Below are positions 654 to 56,373 of a stretch of DNA of 61,880 bases, piece after piece. The notes under the pieces are model-generated. The model worked only from the letters and a program-made list of their open reading frames with translations, was not told the origin of the DNA and did no database searches. Position 1 is the first letter of the stretch; every line of letters starts with the position of its first letter. Location of the stretch: assembly GCA_011523395.1 (NCBI GenBank), contig WTGW01000032.1:1-61880 (forward strand), read 5' to 3'. Source of the stretch: Acidimicrobiia bacterium (GTDB taxonomy: Bacteria > Actinomycetota > Acidimicrobiia > Spongiisociales > Spongiisociaceae). Position numbers and translations under genes: made by a program.

Positions 654-708
654 CGACGGGAAGCCGGTGGCCGCCAGAGCACGCCTGGTTGTTTCGCAGA
701 TAGACCAC
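654..708 (+). repeat. Partial (right-end, 55 bp) copy of the TIR-bounded 165-bp element, abutting the full copy
   Basis: cgacgggaagccggtggccgccagagcacgcctggttgtttcgcagatagaccac matches the last ~55 nt of the copy at 710-874 with two or three mismatches. Confidence 0.85.
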
Positions 709-709
709 T

Positions 710-874
710 GTGGTCTGTCTGTGGAATGGCGGTGTGGTATGGCGTCGGCAGCGGTGTTCCTCGCAAGGCCCGCTGACGAAGGCGTGCCCGAGTGGTACGT
801 TGAGGAAGCGGAACGCAGCGACGGGACGCCGGTGGCCGCCAGAGCACGCCTGGTTGTTTCGCAGACAGACCACT
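710..874 (+). mobile_element. MITE-like non-autonomous element, copy 1 (165 bp, terminal inverted repeats GTGGTCTGTCTG / CAGACAGACCAC)
   Basis: Perfect 12-nt terminal inverted repeat. A second full copy in the same orientation is at 56207-56373. Translations through it in both strands look like noise. Confidence 0.8.
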
Positions 875-887
875 AGGAGGAGAAGAG

Positions 888-2575: not shown

Positions 2576-3931
2576 ATGGAACGGCGCATCTTCGGTCTCG
2601 AGAACGAGTTCGGTATCACGTGCACGCTTCGAGGCCAGCGCCGCCTCAGTCCGGACGAGGTGGCCCGCATCCTCTTCCGGGGGGTCGTGACATGGGGCCG
2701 GTCGTCCAACGTGTTCCTGGAGAACGGAGCGCGGCTCTACCTGGACGTGGGTAGCCATCCGGAGTACGCCACACCGGAGTGCGACGACCTCCTCGACCTC
2801 GTGGCCCACGACAAGGCCGGGGAGCGGGTCCTGGAGGATCTCCAGCGTTCCGCCGAGCAGCGCCTCCGGAACGACGGCATCCGCGGGAACATCTTCCTCT
2901 ACAAGAACAACACCGACTCGGCCGGTAACTCCTACGGGTGCCACGAGAACTACCTGGTACTCCGCAAGGCGGACTTCCAGAAGATGCTGGACATCCTCAT
3001 ACCGTTCCTGGTCAGCCGCCAGATCTTCTCGGGGGCTGGGAAGCTCCTCCAGACCGCCAAGGGGCCTACCTTCTCGATCTCGCAACGCGCCGACCACATC
3101 TGGGAAGGGGTGTCCTCGGCCACCACGCGTTCACGCCCCATCATCAACACGCGTGACGAGCCCCATGCCGATGCCGAGCGGTTCCGGCGCCTCCACGTGA
3201 TCGCCGGCGACTCCAACATGAACGAGTACGCCACCTACGTCAAGGTGGGCGCCACCGTCGCGCTGCTCGAGATGATCGAAGCCGACGTGATGTTCAGAGA
3301 CCTCACCCTTGCCAACCCCATCCGCGCCATCCGGGAGATCAGCCAGGACCCGACCTGCCGGCAACCGGTACGCCTTGCCAACGGTCGGATGCTGTCGGCC
3401 CTCGACATCCAGTGGGAGTACCTGGACCGCATCATCCGGTACGCCCGGAACCCCGGATTCCCCGCCTCGGTGCAGCGAGCCGTCGAGATGTGGGAGCACC
3501 TCCTCACCGGCCTCGAGAAGGATCCCTTCTCGCTGGAACGCCAGGTCGATTGGGTCACGAAGTACCACCTCATCGAGCGGTACCGGGCCAAACACGGCCT
3601 GACCCTCTCCGACGCCCGGGTCCAGTTGCTGGACCTCAGCTACCACGATGTGACGGAGGAGCGCAGCCTCTACTACCTGCTGGCCCGGCGCGGTGTCGTG
3701 GAGCGCCTGGTAACCGACGCCGCCATCGCCATCGCCAAGGAAAAGCCTCCCCAGACCACCCGCGCCCGGCTCCGCGGTCAGTTCATCGCGGCCGCCAAGG
3801 CCCGCAACCGCGACTACACGGTGGACTGGGTCCACCTGAAGCTGAACGACCAGGCCCAGCGAACCGTGCTCTGCAAGGATCCCTTCAAGGCCTTCGACGA
3901 GCGGGTGGAACGCCTGATCGCCGGCCTGTGA
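2576..3931 (+). CDS. pafA: Pup-protein ligase PafA
   Basis: 451 aa starting [14 protein letters not shown] (carboxylate-amine ligase fold of the PafA/Dop family). Lies downstream of prcBA and upstream of pafBC. Confidence 0.93.
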
Positions 3932-3958
3932 GGTCCGCGGAGGACGGACCCCGGCATC

Positions 3959-4110
3959 CCTAGATCAGTGGTCAGTGGTCAGTGGCATGGTGTAACACGG
4001 AACGATACGTACCACCCCAAACAGGCTGGAGGGACAGCGGACACTCGATGCCTCCCGAGTTTCCACTGGCCACTGCCCACTGGAAACCGACCACTGGCAC
4101 TAGCCACCGG
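3959..4110 (+). repeat. Heptamer-armed hairpin element, copy 1 (pafA-pafB spacer)
   Basis: Layout: cctagat, then (CAGTGGT)x3, then ATGGTGTAAC core, then CCACTGG CCACTGC CCACTGG ... CCACTGG CACTAG CCACCGG. Same architecture as 12550-12700 and 20777-20986 (reverse). Confidence 0.85.
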
Positions 4111-4138: not shown

Positions 4139-5062
4139 ATGAGCACCGTAGTCGAGCGCCTGATCAACCTGCTTGCATATCTGGTCGACTCCACGCGTCC
4201 CGTCACCGCCGACCAGATCCGGAACACGGTGGCCGGGTACGAGAACCTCTCCGACCAGGCCTTTCACCGCAAGTTCGAGCGCGACAAGGCCAGCCTCCGC
4301 GAGCTGGGGATCGAGCTCGAGCAGGAAGCCACCGACGCCTGGGAGGTCGAGTGGGGTTACGTGGTCCCCGAGAGCAACTACCGGACCATCGAGCCGGGGC
4401 TCACCGACGAGGAACGGACCGCTCTGGTCCTCGCGGTCCACATGGTGCGTTCCGGCGGCTGGCCGTCGGGCGCCAACGGCCTGCTCAAGCTGGGAGGGGC
4501 GCGGCTGGCCGACACGGACACGCCGGTGGGCGCCGACCTGGGCCTGGGCAGCGAGCACCTGGGGCTGATCTTCCAGGCGGTGCTGGAGCGCCGCCTCATC
4601 CGGTTCCTCTATCGCGGCCGGTCGCGCAGCCTGTGCGCCTACGGCATGCACCATCGGCGGGGCCACTGGTACTTCGCGGGTGTCGAGCCGGAACAGGCCG
4701 GCACCATTCGGACCTACCGGCTCGATCGGGCGGACCGGCTCGAGTTGGTGGGAGAACCGGACGCGTTCCCGCGGCCCGAGGGCTACAGCGCCCGGGACAT
4801 CCTGTCCGCGCTGCCTTGGGAGCGACAGGCGCCGAAACGTGCCCTGATCGAGTGCGATGCCGGCATCGCCTGGTGGGTCGAGAACCGGTTCCCCGATGCC
4901 AGGACCGTGGGGCAGAGCGATACGGGTGGAACGATCCTGGAAGTCCCCTACACGAGCGACTCGCTGCTCGACATGGTCATACACCTCGATGACGGGGCGG
5001 TGATCCTCGACCCTCCGGAGCTTCGCGCCGAGATGGTCCGGCGGCTGGAGGCCGGCCGGTGA
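4139..5062 (+). CDS. pafB: PafB, HTH/WYL-domain transcriptional regulator
   Basis: Start moved to ATG 4139 (MSTVVERLINLLAYLV...) because the upstream part of the ORF runs through the repeat element. HTH N-terminus, WYL-type middle region, GTGA coupling to pafC. Confidence 0.85.
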   Translation: MSTVVERLINLLAYLVDSTRPVTADQIRNTVAGYENLSDQAFHRKFERDKASLRELGIELEQEATDAWEVEWGYVVPESNYRTIEPGLTDEERTALVLAVHMVRSGGWPSGANGLLKLGGARLADTDTPVGADLGLGSEHLGLIFQAVLERRLIRFLYRGRSRSLCAYGMHHRRGHWYFAGVEPEQAGTIRTYRLDRADRLELVGEPDAFPRPEGYSARDILSALPWERQAPKRALIECDAGIAWWVENRFPDARTVGQSDTGGTILEVPYTSDSLLDMVIHLDDGAVILDPPELRAEMVRRLEAGR

Positions 5063-12503: not shown

Positions 12504-12549
12504 CCGGTCGGCTTCCGATTGGGTGTGCCTGACTGCATGCGCATCCCAC

Positions 12550-12700
12550 CCTAGATGAGTGGTCAGTGGTCAGTGGTCAGTGGTCAGTGGATGTTGTAAC
12601 CCGAGGACGAAGCGGACACCCGACAGTCCTGGGGGCCACAAGAAACTTGACCGCTTCCGAGTCGCCCACTGGCCACCGGCCACTAGCCACCGGCCACTAA
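12550..12700 (+). repeat. Heptamer-armed hairpin element, copy 2 (divergent rhomboid / tlyA-block spacer)
   Basis: Layout: cctagatg, then (CAGTGGT)x5, then ATGTTGTAACCC core, then CCCACTGG CCACCGG CCACTAG CCACCGG CCACTAA. The core is near-identical to copy 3. Confidence 0.9.
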
Positions 12701-18286: not shown

Positions 18287-19294
18287 ATGGATCGCACTTC
18301 GGTAGGTAGCGAGGACTGGGTTGCGAAGGTCCGGTCGACAAGACAATTCAGCGATGGAGACAGACGGGCGCCGTACAAACCCTTGTTGCTGCTCTGGGCG
18401 ATCGGCCGGCTGGCCGCAGGTCACCCGGCGCGCGTCTCGTTCTGCGATGCCGAGGAGGAATTGACAAGGCTGATGGAGGGCCATCGGCTAGGCGAGACGC
18501 TGCGTGTGTCTTATCCCTTTGTGTATCTGGGAACCAACCGAGATCTCTGGAGGGTGGAGGCTGCCGATGGATCGGATATCGCCGCAATGCCCCAGCGGGT
18601 CCGGGAGAGTAGGCCGTTCCTATTGGGGGAGGCCACAGGGGAACTGGCTCCCGATTTCGTGGTAGCACTGGAGAACCCGCGAGTGCGTTCCCGGGTGGTC
18701 AACACTCTTCTGGACATGGAGTTCCCGGAGTCACTGCACGCGGAGCTACTCGAGGAAGTAGGTCTGGGACATCTGGTTGCTCCTAGACCTCCCCAACGGG
18801 ATCCTCGGTTCAGGAGGATCGTTCTGCTCGCCTACGAGCACCGGTGTGCCTTCTGTGGCTTTGACGGGATCCTCAGGAACTCACCCGTGGCGATCGACGC
18901 TGCCCACGTACAGATGCGATCGCACAGGGGACCCGACCACATCACCAACGGTGTGGCGCTATGTACCTTCCATCATCGACTCTTCGACCAGGGTGCCCTC
19001 GGTCTCGATTCTGATCGCCGGATACTCGTCAGCCAGCACATGATCGTCCGGGCGAGAGAGGCGAACAATGCTCTGATGCGGCTGGCGGGCATGCCGATGC
19101 TGGAGCCCCAACGCGGATACGAGCCACCCGCCATCCCGCATGTGAAATGGCACTACCGGAACCTCTTCGTCCGGCCTGCCCGCAGACCCTCCTCTCCGGG
19201 TAGCCCCGGTCTCATGCCGGGCCGCCACCCTATTGACCAGACACCTGAGGCTCCCGCACCGAGCATGCGTGTCTCTGGTCGGCGGCGAACGTAA
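18287..19294 (+). CDS. HNH endonuclease, probable phosphorothioated-DNA-binding (SBD-HNH, ScoMcrA/SprMcrA-like) Type IV restriction enzyme
   Basis: C-terminal HNH motif: YEHRCAFCGF ... IDAAHV ... NGVALCTFHHRLFDQGALG. N-terminal RAPYKPLLLLWAIGRL... block matches my memory of the PT-DNA restriction family. GC is visibly lower than the flanks. Confidence 0.7.
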   Translation: MDRTSVGSEDWVAKVRSTRQFSDGDRRAPYKPLLLLWAIGRLAAGHPARVSFCDAEEELTRLMEGHRLGETLRVSYPFVYLGTNRDLWRVEAADGSDIAAMPQRVRESRPFLLGEATGELAPDFVVALENPRVRSRVVNTLLDMEFPESLHAELLEEVGLGHLVAPRPPQRDPRFRRIVLLAYEHRCAFCGFDGILRNSPVAIDAAHVQMRSHRGPDHITNGVALCTFHHRLFDQGALGLDSDRRILVSQHMIVRAREANNALMRLAGMPMLEPQRGYEPPAIPHVKWHYRNLFVRPARRPSSPGSPGLMPGRHPIDQTPEAPAPSMRVSGRRRT

Positions 19295-19337: not shown

Positions 19338-20243
19338 ATGAGCAAAGCACTTGAACCGGATTCACTCGCAATCCAGGTCGATGGCTACCTGGCTGTTCTG
19401 TCGGTGGAGCGGGGTCTCAGCGACAACACCATCACCGCCTACCGGCGCGACCTGGATCATTACCTTGACTTCCTGGGTGACCGGACCGCCGCGCCGGAAC
19501 TGGTGGACGAATTCCTGGCCTGCCTCCATCAGGATGGCATGCGTTCCACCACCATCGCTCGGAAGCTGGCCGCGGTGCGAGGCTTTCACCGGTTCCTGGT
19601 GGCTGAGGACCAGGCACAGGAAGACCCCACCCGGTTCACCGAGACACCAAGGACCCGGATGGGCTTCCCCAAGGCCCTCGATGTCCACGAGGCTATCCGG
19701 CTGGTGGAGGCGCCACCGTCGGACACGGCGCTCGGAAGGCGCGACCGGGCACTACTGGAGACCCTGTACGGCACCGCTGTCCGGGTCAGCGAGCTGGTCG
19801 ACCTCGATCTGACCGATCTGGACATCGACACGCTGAGCGCGATGGTCACCGGCAAGGGCGGCAAGCAACGACTCGTACTCCTGGGCAAGCCGGCCGGCCG
19901 GGCCATAGGCGCCTACCTGCCCGACCGGCTCGAGATGTGCCGGAGCCGGAGGGATCATGACGCCTTGTTCGTGAACGCCCGCGGCGGGCGGCTGACCCGC
20001 CAGGGCGTCTTCGGGATCGTTCGCGCCCATGCCGAGGCGGTGGGCATACCCCGGACCCGCATCTCGCCCCACGTGCTCCGCCACTCGGCCGCGACCCACA
20101 TGGTGGAGAGGGGCGCCGATCTCCGCACCGTGCAGGAAATGCTCGGGCACGCCAGCCTCTCCACCACCCAGGTCTACACCCGGATGTCACTCCAGCACCT
20201 GCACGAGGTGTACGTGGAGGCCCATCCCAGAGCCCTGCGGTAG
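19338..20243 (+). CDS. xerD: Site-specific tyrosine recombinase XerD
   Basis: Start at ATG 19338. Contains the SAM-like N-terminal domain and the catalytic region ISPHVLRHSAATHMVERGADLRTVQEMLGHASLSTTQVYT. Position after pyrG matches mycobacterial xerD. Confidence 0.85.
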   Translation: MSKALEPDSLAIQVDGYLAVLSVERGLSDNTITAYRRDLDHYLDFLGDRTAAPELVDEFLACLHQDGMRSTTIARKLAAVRGFHRFLVAEDQAQEDPTRFTETPRTRMGFPKALDVHEAIRLVEAPPSDTALGRRDRALLETLYGTAVRVSELVDLDLTDLDIDTLSAMVTGKGGKQRLVLLGKPAGRAIGAYLPDRLEMCRSRRDHDALFVNARGGRLTRQGVFGIVRAHAEAVGIPRTRISPHVLRHSAATHMVERGADLRTVQEMLGHASLSTTQVYTRMSLQHLHEVYVEAHPRALR

Positions 20244-20256
20244 GGGAGCACCCAGG

Positions 20257-20793
20257 ATGTCCGGCAGCCCCGGAACGCCACGGGTGAAGGGACCGAGGAT
20301 GCGCCCCCTCCACCTGGCGGGCCGCCTGCTCGACGTCACTCTCTCCCGGTCGCTGAGACCGGGGGAGCAGACCGAGGTGGCGACGTTGTTGACGACCGAT
20401 GCGGAACGGTCGATGTACTGGGACCAGCCGCGGGCCGATCAGCGCCACGGGTTGGCCGCGGCTCGGCTGGTCCGGTCAGCCCGGCCCGGCCGGACCGACC
20501 TGGTTCGGGCGGCGTTGCTGCACGACGTGGGAAAGCGCCACTCCCGGCTGGGACCGATGGGACGGTCCATGGCGACCGTCCTGGGCCGGCTCGGCAACAG
20601 GGGGTCGGCAAGGTTCGCCGACTACCTGGACCACGGCCGGATCGCCGCCCTGGAGCTGGGTCGGTCGGGCGCCGAACCGCTGGTGGTCGCCTTCGCGCTC
20701 CATCACCACCGCGACCGTCCCGAGGAGATCTCTCGCGAGGACTGGGAACTGCTCCAGGCGGCCGATCGCGCTGTTTTAGTTTCTAGTTCCTAG
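20257..20793 (+). CDS. HD-domain protein (metal-dependent phosphohydrolase-like)
   Basis: Contains RHGLAAARLV ... AALLHDVGK. Start is ATG 20257 or 20299. The stop codon lies inside the TAGTTNN heptamer array. Confidence 0.6.
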   Translation: MSGSPGTPRVKGPRMRPLHLAGRLLDVTLSRSLRPGEQTEVATLLTTDAERSMYWDQPRADQRHGLAAARLVRSARPGRTDLVRAALLHDVGKRHSRLGPMGRSMATVLGRLGNRGSARFADYLDHGRIAALELGRSGAEPLVVAFALHHHRDRPEEISREDWELLQAADRAVLVSSS

Positions 20794-20986
20794 TTGTTAG
20801 TTGCTAGTTTGTATTGAATTATGCTGATAACTGTGTAGTGCCAGTGGCCGGTGACCAGTGGCCAGTGGCGACTCGGGGAACGGTCAAGTTCCTTGTGGCC
20901 CTTAAGGCTGTTGGTTGTCCGTCCTCCTCCCTGGGTTACAACATTCACTGACCACTGCCCACTGCCCACTGGACTGAGCATCTAGG
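20777..20986 (-). repeat. Heptamer-armed hairpin element, copy 3 (inverted orientation, with an extra TAGTTNN x5 array)
   Basis: The reverse complement reads cctagatg, CAGTGGG CAGTGGG CAGTGGT CAGTGA, ATGTTGTAACCC core, then GCCACTG GCCACTG GTCACCG GCCACTG. On the + strand, TAGTTTC TAGTTCC TAGTTGT TAGTTGC TAGTTTG lies at 20777-20811. Confidence 0.9.
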
Positions 20987-21084
20987 AGGGAGTTGAGAAC
21001 GCATCGCCCCACCGGATCGGTGTTCCTCGGTTTCCGCGAGACCGGCGCCTACCATCAGCGTATGACGAGTCGAGGCGTGCCGGC

Positions 21085-21843
21085 ATGACGTACGAGGTGG
21101 AGACTCCCGTCTTCGTGGGTCCTCTCGAACTGCTCCTCAAGTTGGTCAGCCGCCGTCATGTCGACGTCATGGAGGTCAACATCTCCCGCGTCATCGAGGA
21201 TTACCTGGCCTCCATCGAGGAGAAGGAGGTCAACCTCGAACTGGCCTCCAGTTTCGTCCTGATGGCGGCGATGCTCATCCACCTCAAGGCCCGTTTCCTG
21301 TTGCCGGAGCCCGACCAGTTGGACCTCGAGGACGAGATGGACCTGCTCGACCAGCGGGACCGGCTGCTGGCCCGTCTGCTCGGCTTCCTTACCTACCAGG
21401 GCGTCGCGACGGTCCTCCGTGAGCGCTTGAGGCAGGGTGCGCAGTACGTGGGCCGCTCCGTCGGCATCGACCAGGATCTCGGCACCCGGCACCCGCCGTC
21501 CCTACCGGAAGGGGTGACACCGGCCGCGCTGGCCGAGATCATGACCTCGCTCGGCGAGGAAGTACGCGCCGAGGTTGAGATCCCGATGGACCACTTCGAT
21601 CTCGATCTCCCGTCGGTCGAGGACGCCATCGCCGCGATCCGGAGGAGGGTGGCCGCGGAGCTGGAGTCCACCTTCGAGCGGCTGGTGGCTCACTGCTCGA
21701 ACAGGGCGGAGGTGGCGGCGTACTTCCTGGCGATCCTGGAGCTGGCCCGATGGGGATTGGTATCCGTGTCCCAGGAGGATCCGGAGGACATCTCGGTCCG
21801 TCACTCCGACGCCAGCCCCGCCGGTGGCCGGGTCGGCCTGTGA
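21085..21843 (+). CDS. scpA: Segregation and condensation protein A
   Basis: 252 aa, FVGPLELLLKLVSRRHVDVMEVNISRVIEDYL N-terminus. Followed by an overlapping scpB. Confidence 0.9.
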   Translation: MTYEVETPVFVGPLELLLKLVSRRHVDVMEVNISRVIEDYLASIEEKEVNLELASSFVLMAAMLIHLKARFLLPEPDQLDLEDEMDLLDQRDRLLARLLGFLTYQGVATVLRERLRQGAQYVGRSVGIDQDLGTRHPPSLPEGVTPAALAEIMTSLGEEVRAEVEIPMDHFDLDLPSVEDAIAAIRRRVAAELESTFERLVAHCSNRAEVAAYFLAILELARWGLVSVSQEDPEDISVRHSDASPAGGRVGL

Positions 21844-26649: not shown

Positions 26650-26726
26650 TGGTCGGGCTGGCGGGATTTGAACCCACGACCTCTTGACCCCCAGTCAAGC
26701 GCGCTACCAAGCTGCGCCACAGCCCG
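26650..26726 (-). tRNA. tRNA-Pro (anticodon GGG), CCA encoded
   Basis: The reverse complement folds as a cloverleaf: acceptor CGGGCTG/CAGCCCG, anticodon arm CTTGA-CTGGGGG-TCAAG, T-arm GTGGG-TTCAAAT-CCCGC, 3' ACCA. Confidence 0.93.
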
Positions 26727-29211: not shown

Positions 29212-31452
29212 ATGAGGGCTTCATCGATGCACAAATCCCTGCGATGGCTGGCGGTCGCGGCCGTTCTGGCCCTGCTCGCCACGGCCTGCGGGGCAGAAGA
29301 CGACACGGACGACGCAGCAGCGGCGCAGGCACAGGCACAGGCCGCCGCAGCGCAGGCGGAGGCAGACGCAGCGCAGGCGGAGGCGGACGCGGCAGAGGCC
29401 GCGCTGACCCAGGCACAGGCCGATCTGGAAGCCGCCCAGGCGGCTGCGGCCGAGGCCATGGAGGGCGACGATGCCGCCCAGGCCGAACTCGCCGCAGCGC
29501 TCGCCGACGCCGAGGCAGCTCTGGCAGATGCCGAGATGGCAGCCGAGGAGGCCATGGAGGCGGCCGCGGCGGCCGAGGAGGCCATGGAGGCGGCCGCGGC
29601 GGAGGAAGCCGCGGCGACCACCGCGGCGGAAGAAGACGCCATGACGGAAGCCGGTCCGTTCACCTACAAGCTGGCCATCTTCAGCGACCCGACCACCGAC
29701 AACCCGTGGGCCTACCTCGACACGGAGGCGGACGTGTGGAACCAGTACGTGCTGTCACCTGCCATCCCGACCCTGTACGGATCGACGTTCCCGAGTTACA
29801 CGGTGGTGCCGAACCTCGCGGCCGACGTCGAGCCCCCGCTGGGCGCCGCCTCAGGCGACAACTGGGTGATCGACGTAAACATGAGGCAGGGTCTGGTCTG
29901 GAGCGACGGCTCACCGATCACCGCCAACGACGTGGCCTTCACCTTCAACGCGGTCAAGGGTCTCCAGATGGGCGGCAACTGGTTCTCCCTGCTACCGCTG
30001 GCCAGGGAGGACGATCCGGACACAGAGGAGAACGAAGGAGCCGAGGGCCTGATCTCCGTCGAGGCTCTCGACGACTACACCGTCCGGTACACGTGGAGTT
30101 CGCAGCCGGGCCTGGCCCAGTGGCAGTTCGGCGCGGCCCAGGCCGCGGTCTTCTCCGAGGCCCACTGGGGCCCGCACGTGGCCGCATCCGGCGACGCCGG
30201 CGAGCTCTACGCCGTGTCCGGCGAGGGTGCGCTATCCGGCGGGAGCATGGTCTTCGACCGCCGCGAGCCCGGCGCCTTCGCCCGGAGCGTGGCGAACGCG
30301 AACGCTAACGACCAGGGAGCGCAGACCACCAGTTACTCGTCCGGAGGCGTCACCTTCTCGGGCGACGTGAGCTGGCAGGTGGGCGACACGTCCGGAGACG
30401 TCATCGCCGACTCGGTCGGCGGGCCTCACGCGGGCGACGCCATCTACTCGGTGTACGACACCCAGGATGCGGCGGTCCTGGCCCTGCGCGACGGGGAGGT
30501 GGACTTCCTGCTCAACCCGCTGGGTCTCCAGCGCGGTCTCCAGTCCACGGTCCTGGAAGCGGGTGACCTCGACGTGATCGCCAACGCTTCCAACGGCTTC
30601 CGCTACCTGGCCTTCAACACCCGGAGTTTCCCCGGTTCGGACGTGGCCTTCCGCCAGGCGATGGCGTGCATGATCGACAAGGAGTTCATGGCGACCAACG
30701 TCCTGCAGGGCGTGGCCATCCCCCTGAACTCCATGGTGCCTCCCGGCAACGCCTTCTGGGCCAACCCGGAACTGGATGCCTGGTGCGCGGGCCAGAGCCA
30801 GGAGGAGCGGGTCAATTCAGCCGTTCAGATCCTGAAGGACGCCGGGTGGACATGGGACGTCGAACCCCAATGGAACCCCGACAACCGGGACGTGATCCCC
30901 AAGGGTGAAGGCCTGCGGGGTCCGGACGGCACGCTGGTCGGCGATCTCGAGTTGCTGGCCCCCGGGCCCGGATACGACCCGCTACGGGCAACGTACAGCC
31001 TGTTCATCGCCGACTGGGCCAACGACCTCGGCATACCGCTGACGGCGGAGCCCACCGGTTTCTCCGTGATCGTGGACAAGGTGTTCGGGCCGGTGGACTG
31101 GGACATGTACATCCTCGGATGGGGTCTCACCATCTTCCCCGACTACGTTGCCGACTTCTTCGACTCGCGCGCCGACTCGGCCACCGCCGGCGGGTTCAAC
31201 ATCCCCGGCTACGCCAACCCGGAGTTCGACGCGATGGCGGATCGGTTGAAGGCGGAGACCGACATCAACGAGGCGGCCTCCATCGTGCGCCAGATGGACG
31301 CGGTGCTCGCCCAGGACGTCCCGTACGTGGTCCTGTTCACGACGCCCGTACTCGAGGCATTCCGGAATACCCTGGAGTTCCCCAGCACCACCACTCTCGA
31401 CGGCTTGCAGAACTTCCAAGGGCTGCCCGGAGCGGTGAACCTGGCGCAGTAG
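29212..31452 (+). CDS. ABC transporter substrate-binding lipoprotein, family 5, paralog 2, with an Ala/Glu/Gln-rich N-terminal linker
   Basis: Lipobox LALLATAC. A ~130-aa low-complexity helical linker is built from in-frame DNA tandem repeats. The body is paralogous to 26894-28924. Confidence 0.85.
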   Translation: MRASSMHKSLRWLAVAAVLALLATACGAEDDTDDAAAAQAQAQAAAAQAEADAAQAEADAAEAALTQAQADLEAAQAAAAEAMEGDDAAQAELAAALADAEAALADAEMAAEEAMEAAAAAEEAMEAAAAEEAAATTAAEEDAMTEAGPFTYKLAIFSDPTTDNPWAYLDTEADVWNQYVLSPAIPTLYGSTFPSYTVVPNLAADVEPPLGAASGDNWVIDVNMRQGLVWSDGSPITANDVAFTFNAVKGLQMGGNWFSLLPLAREDDPDTEENEGAEGLISVEALDDYTVRYTWSSQPGLAQWQFGAAQAAVFSEAHWGPHVAASGDAGELYAVSGEGALSGGSMVFDRREPGAFARSVANANANDQGAQTTSYSSGGVTFSGDVSWQVGDTSGDVIADSVGGPHAGDAIYSVYDTQDAAVLALRDGEVDFLLNPLGLQRGLQSTVLEAGDLDVIANASNGFRYLAFNTRSFPGSDVAFRQAMACMIDKEFMATNVLQGVAIPLNSMVPPGNAFWANPELDAWCAGQSQEERVNSAVQILKDAGWTWDVEPQWNPDNRDVIPKGEGLRGPDGTLVGDLELLAPGPGYDPLRATYSLFIADWANDLGIPLTAEPTGFSVIVDKVFGPVDWDMYILGWGLTIFPDYVADFFDSRADSATAGGFNIPGYANPEFDAMADRLKAETDINEAASIVRQMDAVLAQDVPYVVLFTTPVLEAFRNTLEFPSTTTLDGLQNFQGLPGAVNLAQ

Positions 31453-55467: not shown

Positions 55468-56208
55468 ATGGCCGGTCATTCCAAGTGGGCGAACATCAAG
55501 CACCGCAAGGGCCGGCAGGACGCCGCCCGTGGCAACCTGTTCGCCAAGCTGTGCCGCGCCGTGGAGGCCGCGGCTCGTCAGGGTGGGGGCGATCCGGCGG
55601 GCAACGCCGTGCTGGCCACCGCCATCGACAAGGCCAGGTCCGCCTCGGTGCCCAAGGACAACATCGAGCGGGCCATCAAGCGCGGCACCGGAGAGCTGGT
55701 CGGCGAACGCCTCGACACGTTCTTCTACGAAGGCTACGCGCCAGGGGGAGTGGCGTTGCTGGTGCAGGCGCTCACCGACAACCGGAACCGGGCCGCCTCC
55801 GATATCCGATCAGCCTTCACGAGGAACGGGGGCAACCTCGGCGAGCCGGGTTCCGTCGCCTACCTGTTCGACCAGAAGGGTTACCTTCTAGTAGAAGGTG
55901 ATGAAGACGAGATCTTGATGGCTGCCCTGGAGTCGGGCGCCGAGGACGTACGGCAGAGCGGGGATCAATTCGAGGTGATCACGGCGCCCACCGACTTCCC
56001 GACCGTCCGGGATGCCCTGGCGAGCGCCGAGTTGTCCGTACAGACCGCCGAGATCACCCAGATCCCCTCCGCGACCATTCCGCTGGACGCTTCGGGCGCC
56101 GCCAGGGTCCTGCGCCTGGTGGACACGCTGGACGACCTGGCCGACGTGCAAGGCGTCTACGGCAACTTCGACATCCCCGACGACTACCTGGCCGCTCTGG
56201 CCGAGTAG
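55468..56208 (+). CDS. yebC: YebC/PmpR-family DNA-binding transcriptional regulator
   Basis: MAGHSKWANIKHRKGRQDA N-terminus. The stop codon TAG is contiguous with the left end of the MITE-like element. Confidence 0.93.
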   Translation: MAGHSKWANIKHRKGRQDAARGNLFAKLCRAVEAAARQGGGDPAGNAVLATAIDKARSASVPKDNIERAIKRGTGELVGERLDTFFYEGYAPGGVALLVQALTDNRNRAASDIRSAFTRNGGNLGEPGSVAYLFDQKGYLLVEGDEDEILMAALESGAEDVRQSGDQFEVITAPTDFPTVRDALASAELSVQTAEITQIPSATIPLDASGAARVLRLVDTLDDLADVQGVYGNFDIPDDYLAALAE

Positions 56209-56373
56209 TGGTCTGTCTGTGGAACGGCGGCGTGGTATGGCGTCGGCAGCGGTGTTCCTCGCAAGTTCCGCTGACGAAGGCGTACCCGCAGCGGTACGTC
56301 AAGGCAGCGGAACGCAGCGACGGGACGCCGATGACCGCCAGACCACGCCAGGTTGTTTCGCAGACAGACCACT
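56207..56373 (+). mobile_element. MITE-like non-autonomous element, copy 2
   Basis: Roughly nine in ten positions identical (by eye) to 710-874, with the same terminal inverted repeats and TA on both flanks. Confidence 0.85.

Follow-up and report, generated by a model that had tools for sequence, protein, structure and literature searches.

Insertion sequences (IS) of the IS630 family duplicate a TA dinucleotide, which in the case of IS630 is preferably the one of a CTAG (PMC2170065, citing Tenzen and Ohtsubo 1991). RUP of pneumococcus, a classical bacterial miniature inverted-repeat transposable element (MITE), was assigned to a member of this family on evidence like that presented here (PMC2170065, PMC2229807). 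Short intergenic DNA can also consist of tandem heptamers, reportedly the most abundant class of long simple sequence repeat (SSR) in most of the SSR-rich prokaryotic genomes covered, some of them Actinobacteria (PMC4679880). We analyzed an element that carries such heptamers in inverted arms around a core, hereafter the heptamer element. It is present in three copies in a 61,880-nucleotide stretch of DNA from an Acidimicrobiia bacterium (GenBank assembly GCA_011523395.1, contig WTGW01000032.1, positions 1 to 61,880), referred to below as the window, and it had been pointed out in an earlier note made from the sequence alone. We propose, with a probability of roughly 0.6, that the heptamer element is a family of non-autonomous DNA transposons, that is, a MITE family, of Acidimicrobiia related to 'Candidatus Spongiisocius'. 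As far as can be told, this family is undescribed.

Three copies of an element with heptamer arms

All three copies in the window show the same order of parts: a TA dinucleotide, a left array of three to five CAGTGGN units, the block ATGKTGTAAC, about 66 nt of further core, a right array of CCACYRG units, and a second TA (Table 1). The copies lie within 3958-4110 (+), 12549-12700 (+), and 20838-20988 (-). For the heptamer pattern CAGTGGNCAGTGG, 13 occurrences were counted in the window against 0.49 expected, every one of them at the three copies. The arms pair, with a fold of -79.5 kcal/mol for copy 2 (z = -6.6) and z-scores of -2.3 and -2.6 for copies 1 and 3, respectively. These results confirm the claim of the earlier note that the window holds three copies with complementary heptamer arms and a core. 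The cores of copies 2 and 3, which were said to align almost base for base, do match well, but their identity of 78% is weaker than that wording implies; copy 1 is 65% identical to either. The 8-mer CCTAGATG is found in the window at copies 2 and 3 only. The left arm of copy 2 has a period of 7 with 100% matches, and no further period-7 arrays of the CAGTGGN kind were found in the window, except for a TAGTTNC array that adjoins copy 3.

A dispersed family in Acidimicrobiia genomes

A scan of one genome per species in GTDB with the pattern AGTGGNCAGTG-N1-2-ATGNTGTAAC returned 22 stretches, 20 of which were true copies located in five Acidimicrobiia metagenome-assembled genomes (MAGs). Nine of these are on the 3.67-Mb sequence OZ241858.1, the complete chromosome of a 'Candidatus Spongiisocius sp.' MAG of the class Acidimicrobiia, eight are in JAJEIM01 (MAG p16x65bins.30), and three more MAGs have one each. 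A search with nhmmer added two copies, both on JAJEIM01. The names of the host genomes suggest sponge symbionts. The specific pattern gave four matches in JGI metagenomes, all by chance, and a shorter pattern for array and core gave only chance matches in IMG/VR. An ENA metagenome contig matches the window at 99.96% identity, and a second strain does so at about 98%. The copies are intergenic, occur in several genomes, and are found in all four orientations relative to the neighboring genes; a dispersed family rather than a gene-specific leader, as the earlier note had argued, is thus what the genomes hold, and the roughly 20 additional copies in the five MAGs are the further copies in relatives for which that note had called. 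Where the upstream gene is co-oriented, its stop codon and the start of the array are -2 to 13 nt apart, and a TAG stop is often formed by the first bases of the element.

Across the family, the element is about 100-250 bp long. As in prokaryotic MITEs, it is small (under ~300 bp), non-coding, and dispersed. In the left arm, GGTCAGT is repeated almost perfectly, with 0-18 units and more in truncated contigs, and the length of this array at one site varies between strains; the right arm has 1-8 units. The lengths of the two arms are uncorrelated (r = 0.02), and the left array is therefore often far longer than any partner with which it could pair. By a strict count, canonical heptamers make up 70% of left-arm units versus 26% of right-arm units. 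The right arm follows a degenerate pattern that is common to copies of different genomes, CAACTGG CCACTGG CAACCGG CCACTGG CCACTAC AAG CCACCGG. Likeness to the cyanobacterial STRR heptamers had been set aside too quickly in the earlier note, since the left arm does behave as a heptamer microsatellite. It is, however, the only part that forms a strain-variable tandem array of the heptamer SSR kind, and it does not stand alone, being accompanied by a 76-nt core and the right arm.

Identity between cores ranges from 65 to 95%. The blocks ATGYTGTAAC, AAGGGCC, CTTGAY, and GGTCGC are conserved, and variable stretches with insertions or deletions (indels) of 1-5 nt lie between them. The core was also considered as a coding sequence; indels of this size, which are not multiples of three, exclude a conserved open reading frame (ORF), and ATG-YTG-TAA reads as a mini-ORF of two codons without supporting context. 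The terminal inverted repeats can be written TAGTGGYCAGTGG...CCACTGRCCACTA, and the helix adjacent to the core is 97.7% paired among 22 sequences. The left and right edges of the core, GTTGTAACC and GGTCGCAAC, are largely complementary, and a sister family described below, MITE-170, is arranged alike.

Occupied and empty sites

Each of the three sites in the window is empty in at least two relatives (collected loci are cited here by number, as L121). Mobility, which the earlier note had raised as a possibility, is very probable in view of these filled and empty sites. Copy 1, in the pafA-pafB spacer, is identical in L122-L125. The spacer is short and without the element in L278, L279, and L280 (relatives with PafA identities of 95%, 94%, and 86%). 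In L121 and L126, two strains with ~98-99% identity to the window, its place is taken by a hairpin without a core, (CTAGTTN)n/(AACTAGN)n. That hairpin has only the right junction in common with copy 1 of the window.

The site of copy 2, in the spacer beside the rhomboid gene, is empty in five relatives (L121/L281, L282, L283, L278), where it reads CCCACCC-TA-GGAGGGTG with a single CTAG. On the more distant OZ241858.1 (L252), an element with another core subtype occupies the same CCCTAG site; two insertions that took place there independently are the best explanation. A common site with different cores is also seen in L251 and L254. Copy 3 belongs to a larger block, 20779-20982, made up of the TAGTTNC array, a 57-nt spacer, and the copy itself, and bounded by TA at 20777-20778 and 20983-20984. 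This block is absent from L282 and L283, and orthologous copies are present in L281 and L268; in the scpA spacer, the window reads GTTT-TA-block-TA-GGAGGGAG versus GTCC-TG-GGAGGGAG in L283. Where relatives lack copy 2 or copy 3, the site holds a CTAG or CTGG palindrome only, with no heptamer array.

Termini and related mobile elements

Most untruncated copies end in C-TA-GTGG...CCAC-TA-G. The heptanucleotide CCTAGAT does precede all three copies in the window, as the earlier note had observed, but it is best read as a target half-site (CC), the TA, and the terminus of the element (GAT) rather than as a signature internal to the element.

The sister family MITE-170 (~165 bp) ends in TA-GTGGTCTGTCTGTG(G/T)AAC and is internally self-complementary. 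Its first eight bases are those of the heptamer element (the TAGTGGTC terminus), and the two families also have in common the TGTAAC block, which in MITE-170 sits in the terminal repeat. For MITE-170, a clean TA target duplication within CTAG can be seen: L122 (2723-2891) reads CGC-TA-(165 bp)-TA-GGCTTG, versus CAC-TA-GGCTTG in L123 (~2530) and L121 (~2810). Near the start of the window, a partial MITE-170 has a full copy immediately after it, and since L121 and L126 have the partial copy only, the full one (710-875) is an insertion at the terminal TA of the partial one. Sequence like MITE-170 directly abuts heptamer elements in L260 and L266. A generic finder of TA plus 14-mer inverted repeats detected MITE-170 and a 100-bp MITE, and it missed the heptamer family because the arms are imperfect. 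This third TA-flanked MITE of related Acidimicrobiia (~100 bp, ends GGAGGATGCTGAAC) is found at L280:17606-17710, L258:623-727, and L280:1533-1640, and in L280 it is nested against IS630 copies.

A partner transposase was sought by tblastn of an IS630 transposase against the collected loci, by a homologue search (7993 proteins), and by four look-ups. The IS630-family elements (HTH + DDE_3) inspected comprised two copies from L280 and, from ten places in other relatives, four transposase variants, and all of them read C-TA-GTGTCCTG...CAGGACAC-TA-G. They are inserted in TA, with TA duplication. Their ends, TA-GTGTCCTG, agree with those of MITE-170 at 9 of 13 positions and with the terminus of the heptamer element at 5 of 8. 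In L286 (~520 and ~1695), an IS630-family element lies in the CTAG of a heptamer array (...CAACTAG-IS-CCACTAGCCACTAAAATCACTGG), which indicates that heptamer arrays bearing CTAG are landing sites for TA-targeting elements.

A transposon terminus as the proposed origin of the left array

As a MITE, the heptamer element would move by cut and paste, in trans, probably by means of a DDE transposase of the IS630/Tc1-mariner type. It would insert at TA inside palindromes of the CTAG type, for example CCC-TA-GGAGGG or CCTAGG-like sequences, and insertion of this kind would explain both the CCTAGAT start and the many copies that abut TAG stop codons. The arms would be terminal inverted repeats built on GTGGTCAGTGG / CCACTGRCCAC. 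The unstructured core would be internal sequence whose edges, its best-conserved parts (ATGYTGTAAC on the left and GGTCGCAAC on the right), would belong to the terminal repeats as their inner portion and presumably bind the transposase. The terminus GTGG-TCA-GTGG already holds a direct repeat with a 7-base period, from which the left arm may have expanded by replication slippage; it would thereby have become the near-perfect (GGTCAGT)n microsatellite, whose length varies freely. A fixed degenerate heptamer pattern, inherited from the master copy, would be kept by the right arm.

Several observations weigh against this proposal. The copy number is modest, ~10 per genome by exact pattern, and about one third of the copies have no TA at one end. 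As CTAG is palindromic, a TA duplication, a 4-bp YTAR duplication (IS5 type), and a terminal repeat that starts with CTAG are indistinguishable, and an IS5-type 4-bp YTAR duplication fits equally well as TA. Comparison of the window sites with relatives gave no exact filled/empty pair with a clean TA duplication for the heptamer family, and the copy 2 site in the window also lacks ~29 nt to the right of CTAG. No autonomous element with TA-GTGGTC ends was found among the inspected IS630 elements, all of which have the ends given above. Slippage alone leaves the expansion of the left arm only unaccounted for. Finally, different species have kept some copies at orthologous sites (L256/L264, L260/L266, window/L281/L268), which would also be expected of an element that is useful to the host.

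Heptamer repeats outside the family

Viral contigs in IMG/VR commonly carry hairpins without a core, in which a short loop joins (CAGTGGN)n to (NCCACTG)n; at least 120 stretches were collected (L001-L120; examples are L008:838-930, L008:1310-1391, and L037:7800-7945). Within 10 kb of L008 there are 11 arrays, some of them directly after a stop codon. Other CAGTNNN units, such as CAGTAAT and CAGTGAT, build similar hairpins in IMG/VR. A BLAST search of copy 2 against phages and plasmids found bare GGTCAGT arrays in Streptomyces-type plasmids only. At L290:401-430 (plasmid of Streptomyces sp. NBC_01340) and L291:380-428 (S. cattleyicolor pSCAT), perfect direct (GGTCAGT)4-5 arrays stand without a core or an inverted partner, so that the GGTCAGT heptamer expands independently in other Actinomycetota.

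Alternative explanations

The view put forward in the earlier note, that the element is a structured non-coding RNA or single-stranded DNA with a core helix under purifying selection, now appears very improbable and is largely refuted. A short inner stem can be formed by copy 2 and by copy 3, at about matching positions, and the core is conserved to the degree given above. Yet no copy matched Rfam 15, whether at the gathering threshold for the window, at E values up to 10 for copy 2, or at E values up to 1 for eight copy loci, and RNAalifold predicted no pair on either strand of the core alone. Applied to the 22-sequence family alignment, the same program recovered the arm helix only, with no pair changed on both sides. 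The folding energy of the core is about that of dinucleotide shuffles (mean z of +0.19 and -0.34), so that excess stability is lacking as well as a consensus structure and covariation. The inner stem gaagcgg/ccgcttc, for which a compensatory change had been claimed, is paired in 39% of cells of the 22-sequence alignment, and 494 of 500 shuffles reached the same paired percentage for the whole structure; in the orthologues of copy 3, its 3' side reads CTGTTCC (L281) or CTGCTCC (L268), and the 5' side has no matching change. The length of the core shifts through its 1-5 nt indels, and the strand of the copies relative to transcription units is inconsistent, both orientations being found. The element thus fails as a structured RNA. 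The earlier note recognized no known family in it, which holds as far as Rfam is concerned, but its anatomy and behavior fit a MITE with TA/CTAG ends. A different role for RNA would be that the element, whatever its origin, is kept as a working hairpin, as a terminator or insulator, a stabilizer of mRNA 3' ends, or an RNase III site, with an array that may tune the expression of its neighbors. Correia and ERIC elements are known to work in this way (PMC10969869). The strong pairing of the core-adjacent arms would suit such a function, as would the T opposite G in each heptamer, which gives G-U on the strand shown and A-C on the other. Also in its favor are the short distance from the stop codon of a co-directional upstream gene, the bare heptamer hairpins that directly follow stop codons in IMG/VR contigs, and the copies at orthologous sites in different species. 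Against this, orientation relative to transcription varies, arm lengths are uncorrelated with a left arm often beyond pairable length, and there is no T-tract or consensus terminator; indeed, a search for promoter and terminator consensus sequences found none in or beside copy 2 and none inside copy 3. Arm pairs have never changed on both sides, so that conservation of the arms may reflect inheritance only. At every site, the element is absent from close relatives, with no replacement visible. We therefore consider host function as the main explanation unlikely, but the host may make secondary use of the hairpin, like that of Correia and ERIC elements, for instance as a terminator-like structure or an RNase III site, and such a use would be compatible with a MITE.

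The other alternative concerns the way in which the element spreads. A hairpin-forming intergenic repeat might disperse without a cut-and-paste DDE transposase, either by homologous recombination or gene conversion between heptamer arrays already present in many spacers or through a hairpin-specific single-strand enzyme like those of REP/RAYT or IS200/IS605, with the core as a cassette that passes from array to array. Different cores at orthologous sites (L251/L254, window/L252) are what gene conversion would leave, and core-less heptamer hairpins are found both in the same lineage and spacer (L121, L126) and commonly elsewhere. The junctions of copies 1 and 2 are not simple insertions, and the inspected IS630 elements included no matching transposase. 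The degenerate right-arm pattern and the heptamer type are, however, common to all copies, which argues that arms and core move as one, and no heptamer array that could have served as a recombination partner is present where relatives lack copies 2 and 3. The termini match those of a sister family with demonstrated TA duplication, and arms of tandem heptamers are unlike the short palindromes with 5' GTAG of the REP type. On balance, spread without a DDE transposase seems unlikely. A broader and quite unlikely idea, prompted by the hairpins outside the family, is that (CAGTNNN)n/(NNNACTG)n hairpins are a widespread undescribed class of intergenic elements, made or kept not by passive slippage but by a dedicated activity (for example, a transposase or polymerase adding heptamers at one terminus). 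Hosts or phages would use them as protein-binding arrays or as terminators tuned by their length, and in the Acidimicrobiia element such a hairpin would for the first time be coupled to a mobile core.

Features of the window

The coordinates of the three copies, their parts, and the related repeats are collected in Table 1; the genes beside the copies were named via Pfam. The (TAGTTNC)5 array next to copy 3 provides the stop codon TAG (20791-20793) of the upstream ORF 20029-20793. This ORF terminates differently in L282 and L283, which are without the block, and the pattern of the array is kept in L281 and L268. The search for promoter and terminator consensus sequences gave a single hit, a terminator-like hairpin that lies upstream, at 20756-20776.

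Table 1 Heptamer elements and related repeats in the window
Feature	Position	Strand	Description
Copy 1	3963-4100	+	Between pafA (2576-3931) and pafB-like WYL gene (4139-5062)
Copy 1, left TA	3961-3962
Copy 1, left array	3966-3985
Copy 1, core	3986-4062
Copy 1, right arm	from 4063
Copy 1, right TA	4101-4102
Copy 2	12554-12697	+	Between rhomboid gene (-) and 81-aa ORF/tlyA operon (+)
Copy 2, left TA	12552-12553		Within CCCTAG; candidate target dinucleotide
Copy 2, left arm	12554-12590	+	GAT + GAGTGGT + (CAGTGGT)3 + CAGTGG; putative terminal inverted repeat grown into heptamer array
Copy 2, core	12591-12666	+	76 nt; starts with nearly invariant ATGYTGTAAC; AAGGGCC and CTTGAY blocks; ends with GAGTCGCC
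Copy 2, right arm	12665-12697	+	Degenerate CCACTGG CCACCGG CCACTAG CCACCGG CCAC; complements left arm
Copy 2, right TA	12698-12699		CCAC-TA-AGACC
Copy 3	20838-20982	-	Inverted; between 254-aa ORF (20029-20793) and scpA (21085-21843)
Copy 3, TA	20983-20984, 20836-20837
Copy 3, left array	20945-20971
Copy 3, core	20869-20944
Second heptamer array, (TAGTTNC)5	20774-20809	+	Adjoins copy 3
MITE-170	654-875	+	Partial copy 654-709, then full copy 710-875
MITE-170	56208-56372	+	Sister family, ~165 bp; TA-GTGGTCTGTCTGTGGAAC...GTTTCGCAGACAGACCAC-TA

Three further features were seen in the window. A gene of 335 aa at 18287-19294, between pyrG and xerD, encodes ScoMcrA-type DNA-binding and HNH nuclease domains and is type IV restriction-like. 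It is strain-variable: L273-L277 have the gene, and L281 and L282 lack it, with pyrG adjoining xerD. The sole Rfam family match in the window is a tRNA gene at 26653-26726 on the minus strand (65 bits). A cluster of overlapping 15-30-nt tandem repeats, rich in GCAG/GAGG, at 29312-29602 is probably a repetitive coding segment.

Significance and comparison with known systems

If the heptamer element is a MITE, hairpins that would otherwise be miscalled as candidate small RNAs or riboswitches in Acidimicrobiia MAGs can be recognized as such, and its long perfect arrays would be expected to break short-read assemblies. Its copies, which differ between genomes that are 98% identical, could be used as strain markers. 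It would also be a natural case of a transposon terminus that becomes a microsatellite, which bears on the origin of heptamer repeats. No new mechanism and no new class of RNA or of element would be opened by it; it would be a MITE with a foldback-like microsatellite arm.

The cyanobacterial STRR, the TAACTGA repeats of Beggiatoaceae and cyanobacteria, and long SSRs resemble the heptamer element in being intergenic tandem heptamers, with a unit of the CAGT/ACTG type and a strain-variable copy number. They differ from it as plain, mostly direct arrays, which lack both a conserved unique core and a partner arm of fixed degenerate pattern and are not dispersed as a unit. The foldback (FB) transposons of Drosophila have inverted arms of short tandem repeats, variable and unequal, around a unique middle. 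FB elements are eukaryotic and of kilobase scale, with repeat units of 10-31 bp and a transposase of a different family, and their likeness to the heptamer element is one of architecture only.

Among bacterial repeats, the REP/REPIN sequences, which RAYT transposases mobilize, are likewise short dispersed intergenic hairpin repeats with within-genome evolution and turnover of sites (PMC3116915). A REPIN, however, consists of two inverted palindromic REPs of ~25 nt with a conserved 5' tetranucleotide, whereas the arms of the heptamer element are tandem heptamers that are not self-palindromic, and its ends are TA/CTAG. The Correia/NEMIS elements of Neisseria are closer: they are TA-flanked and ~100-155 bp long, give long-hairpin transcripts, and have subtypes in an internal segment; they lie at gene ends and promoters, and no transposase partner has been assigned to them (PMC2229807, PMC10969869). 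Correia elements have fixed terminal repeats of 24-26 bp, an IHF site, and promoters, and they are without a microsatellite arm; motifs of this kind were not detected in the heptamer element. RUP and other MITEs of the IS630-Tc1-mariner type differ from the heptamer element in its terminal repeat, which consists of tandem heptamers in varying number and has unequal arms, and in that TA duplication is seen for the sister family MITE-170 only, the transposase of the heptamer element being a candidate of the IS630 type. In other respects they are alike: both are ~100-200 bp long, non-coding, and intergenic, both have terminal inverted repeats and are flanked by TA on either side, the termini resemble those of IS630 elements of the same lineage, and the elements insert beside or into each other (PMC2229807).

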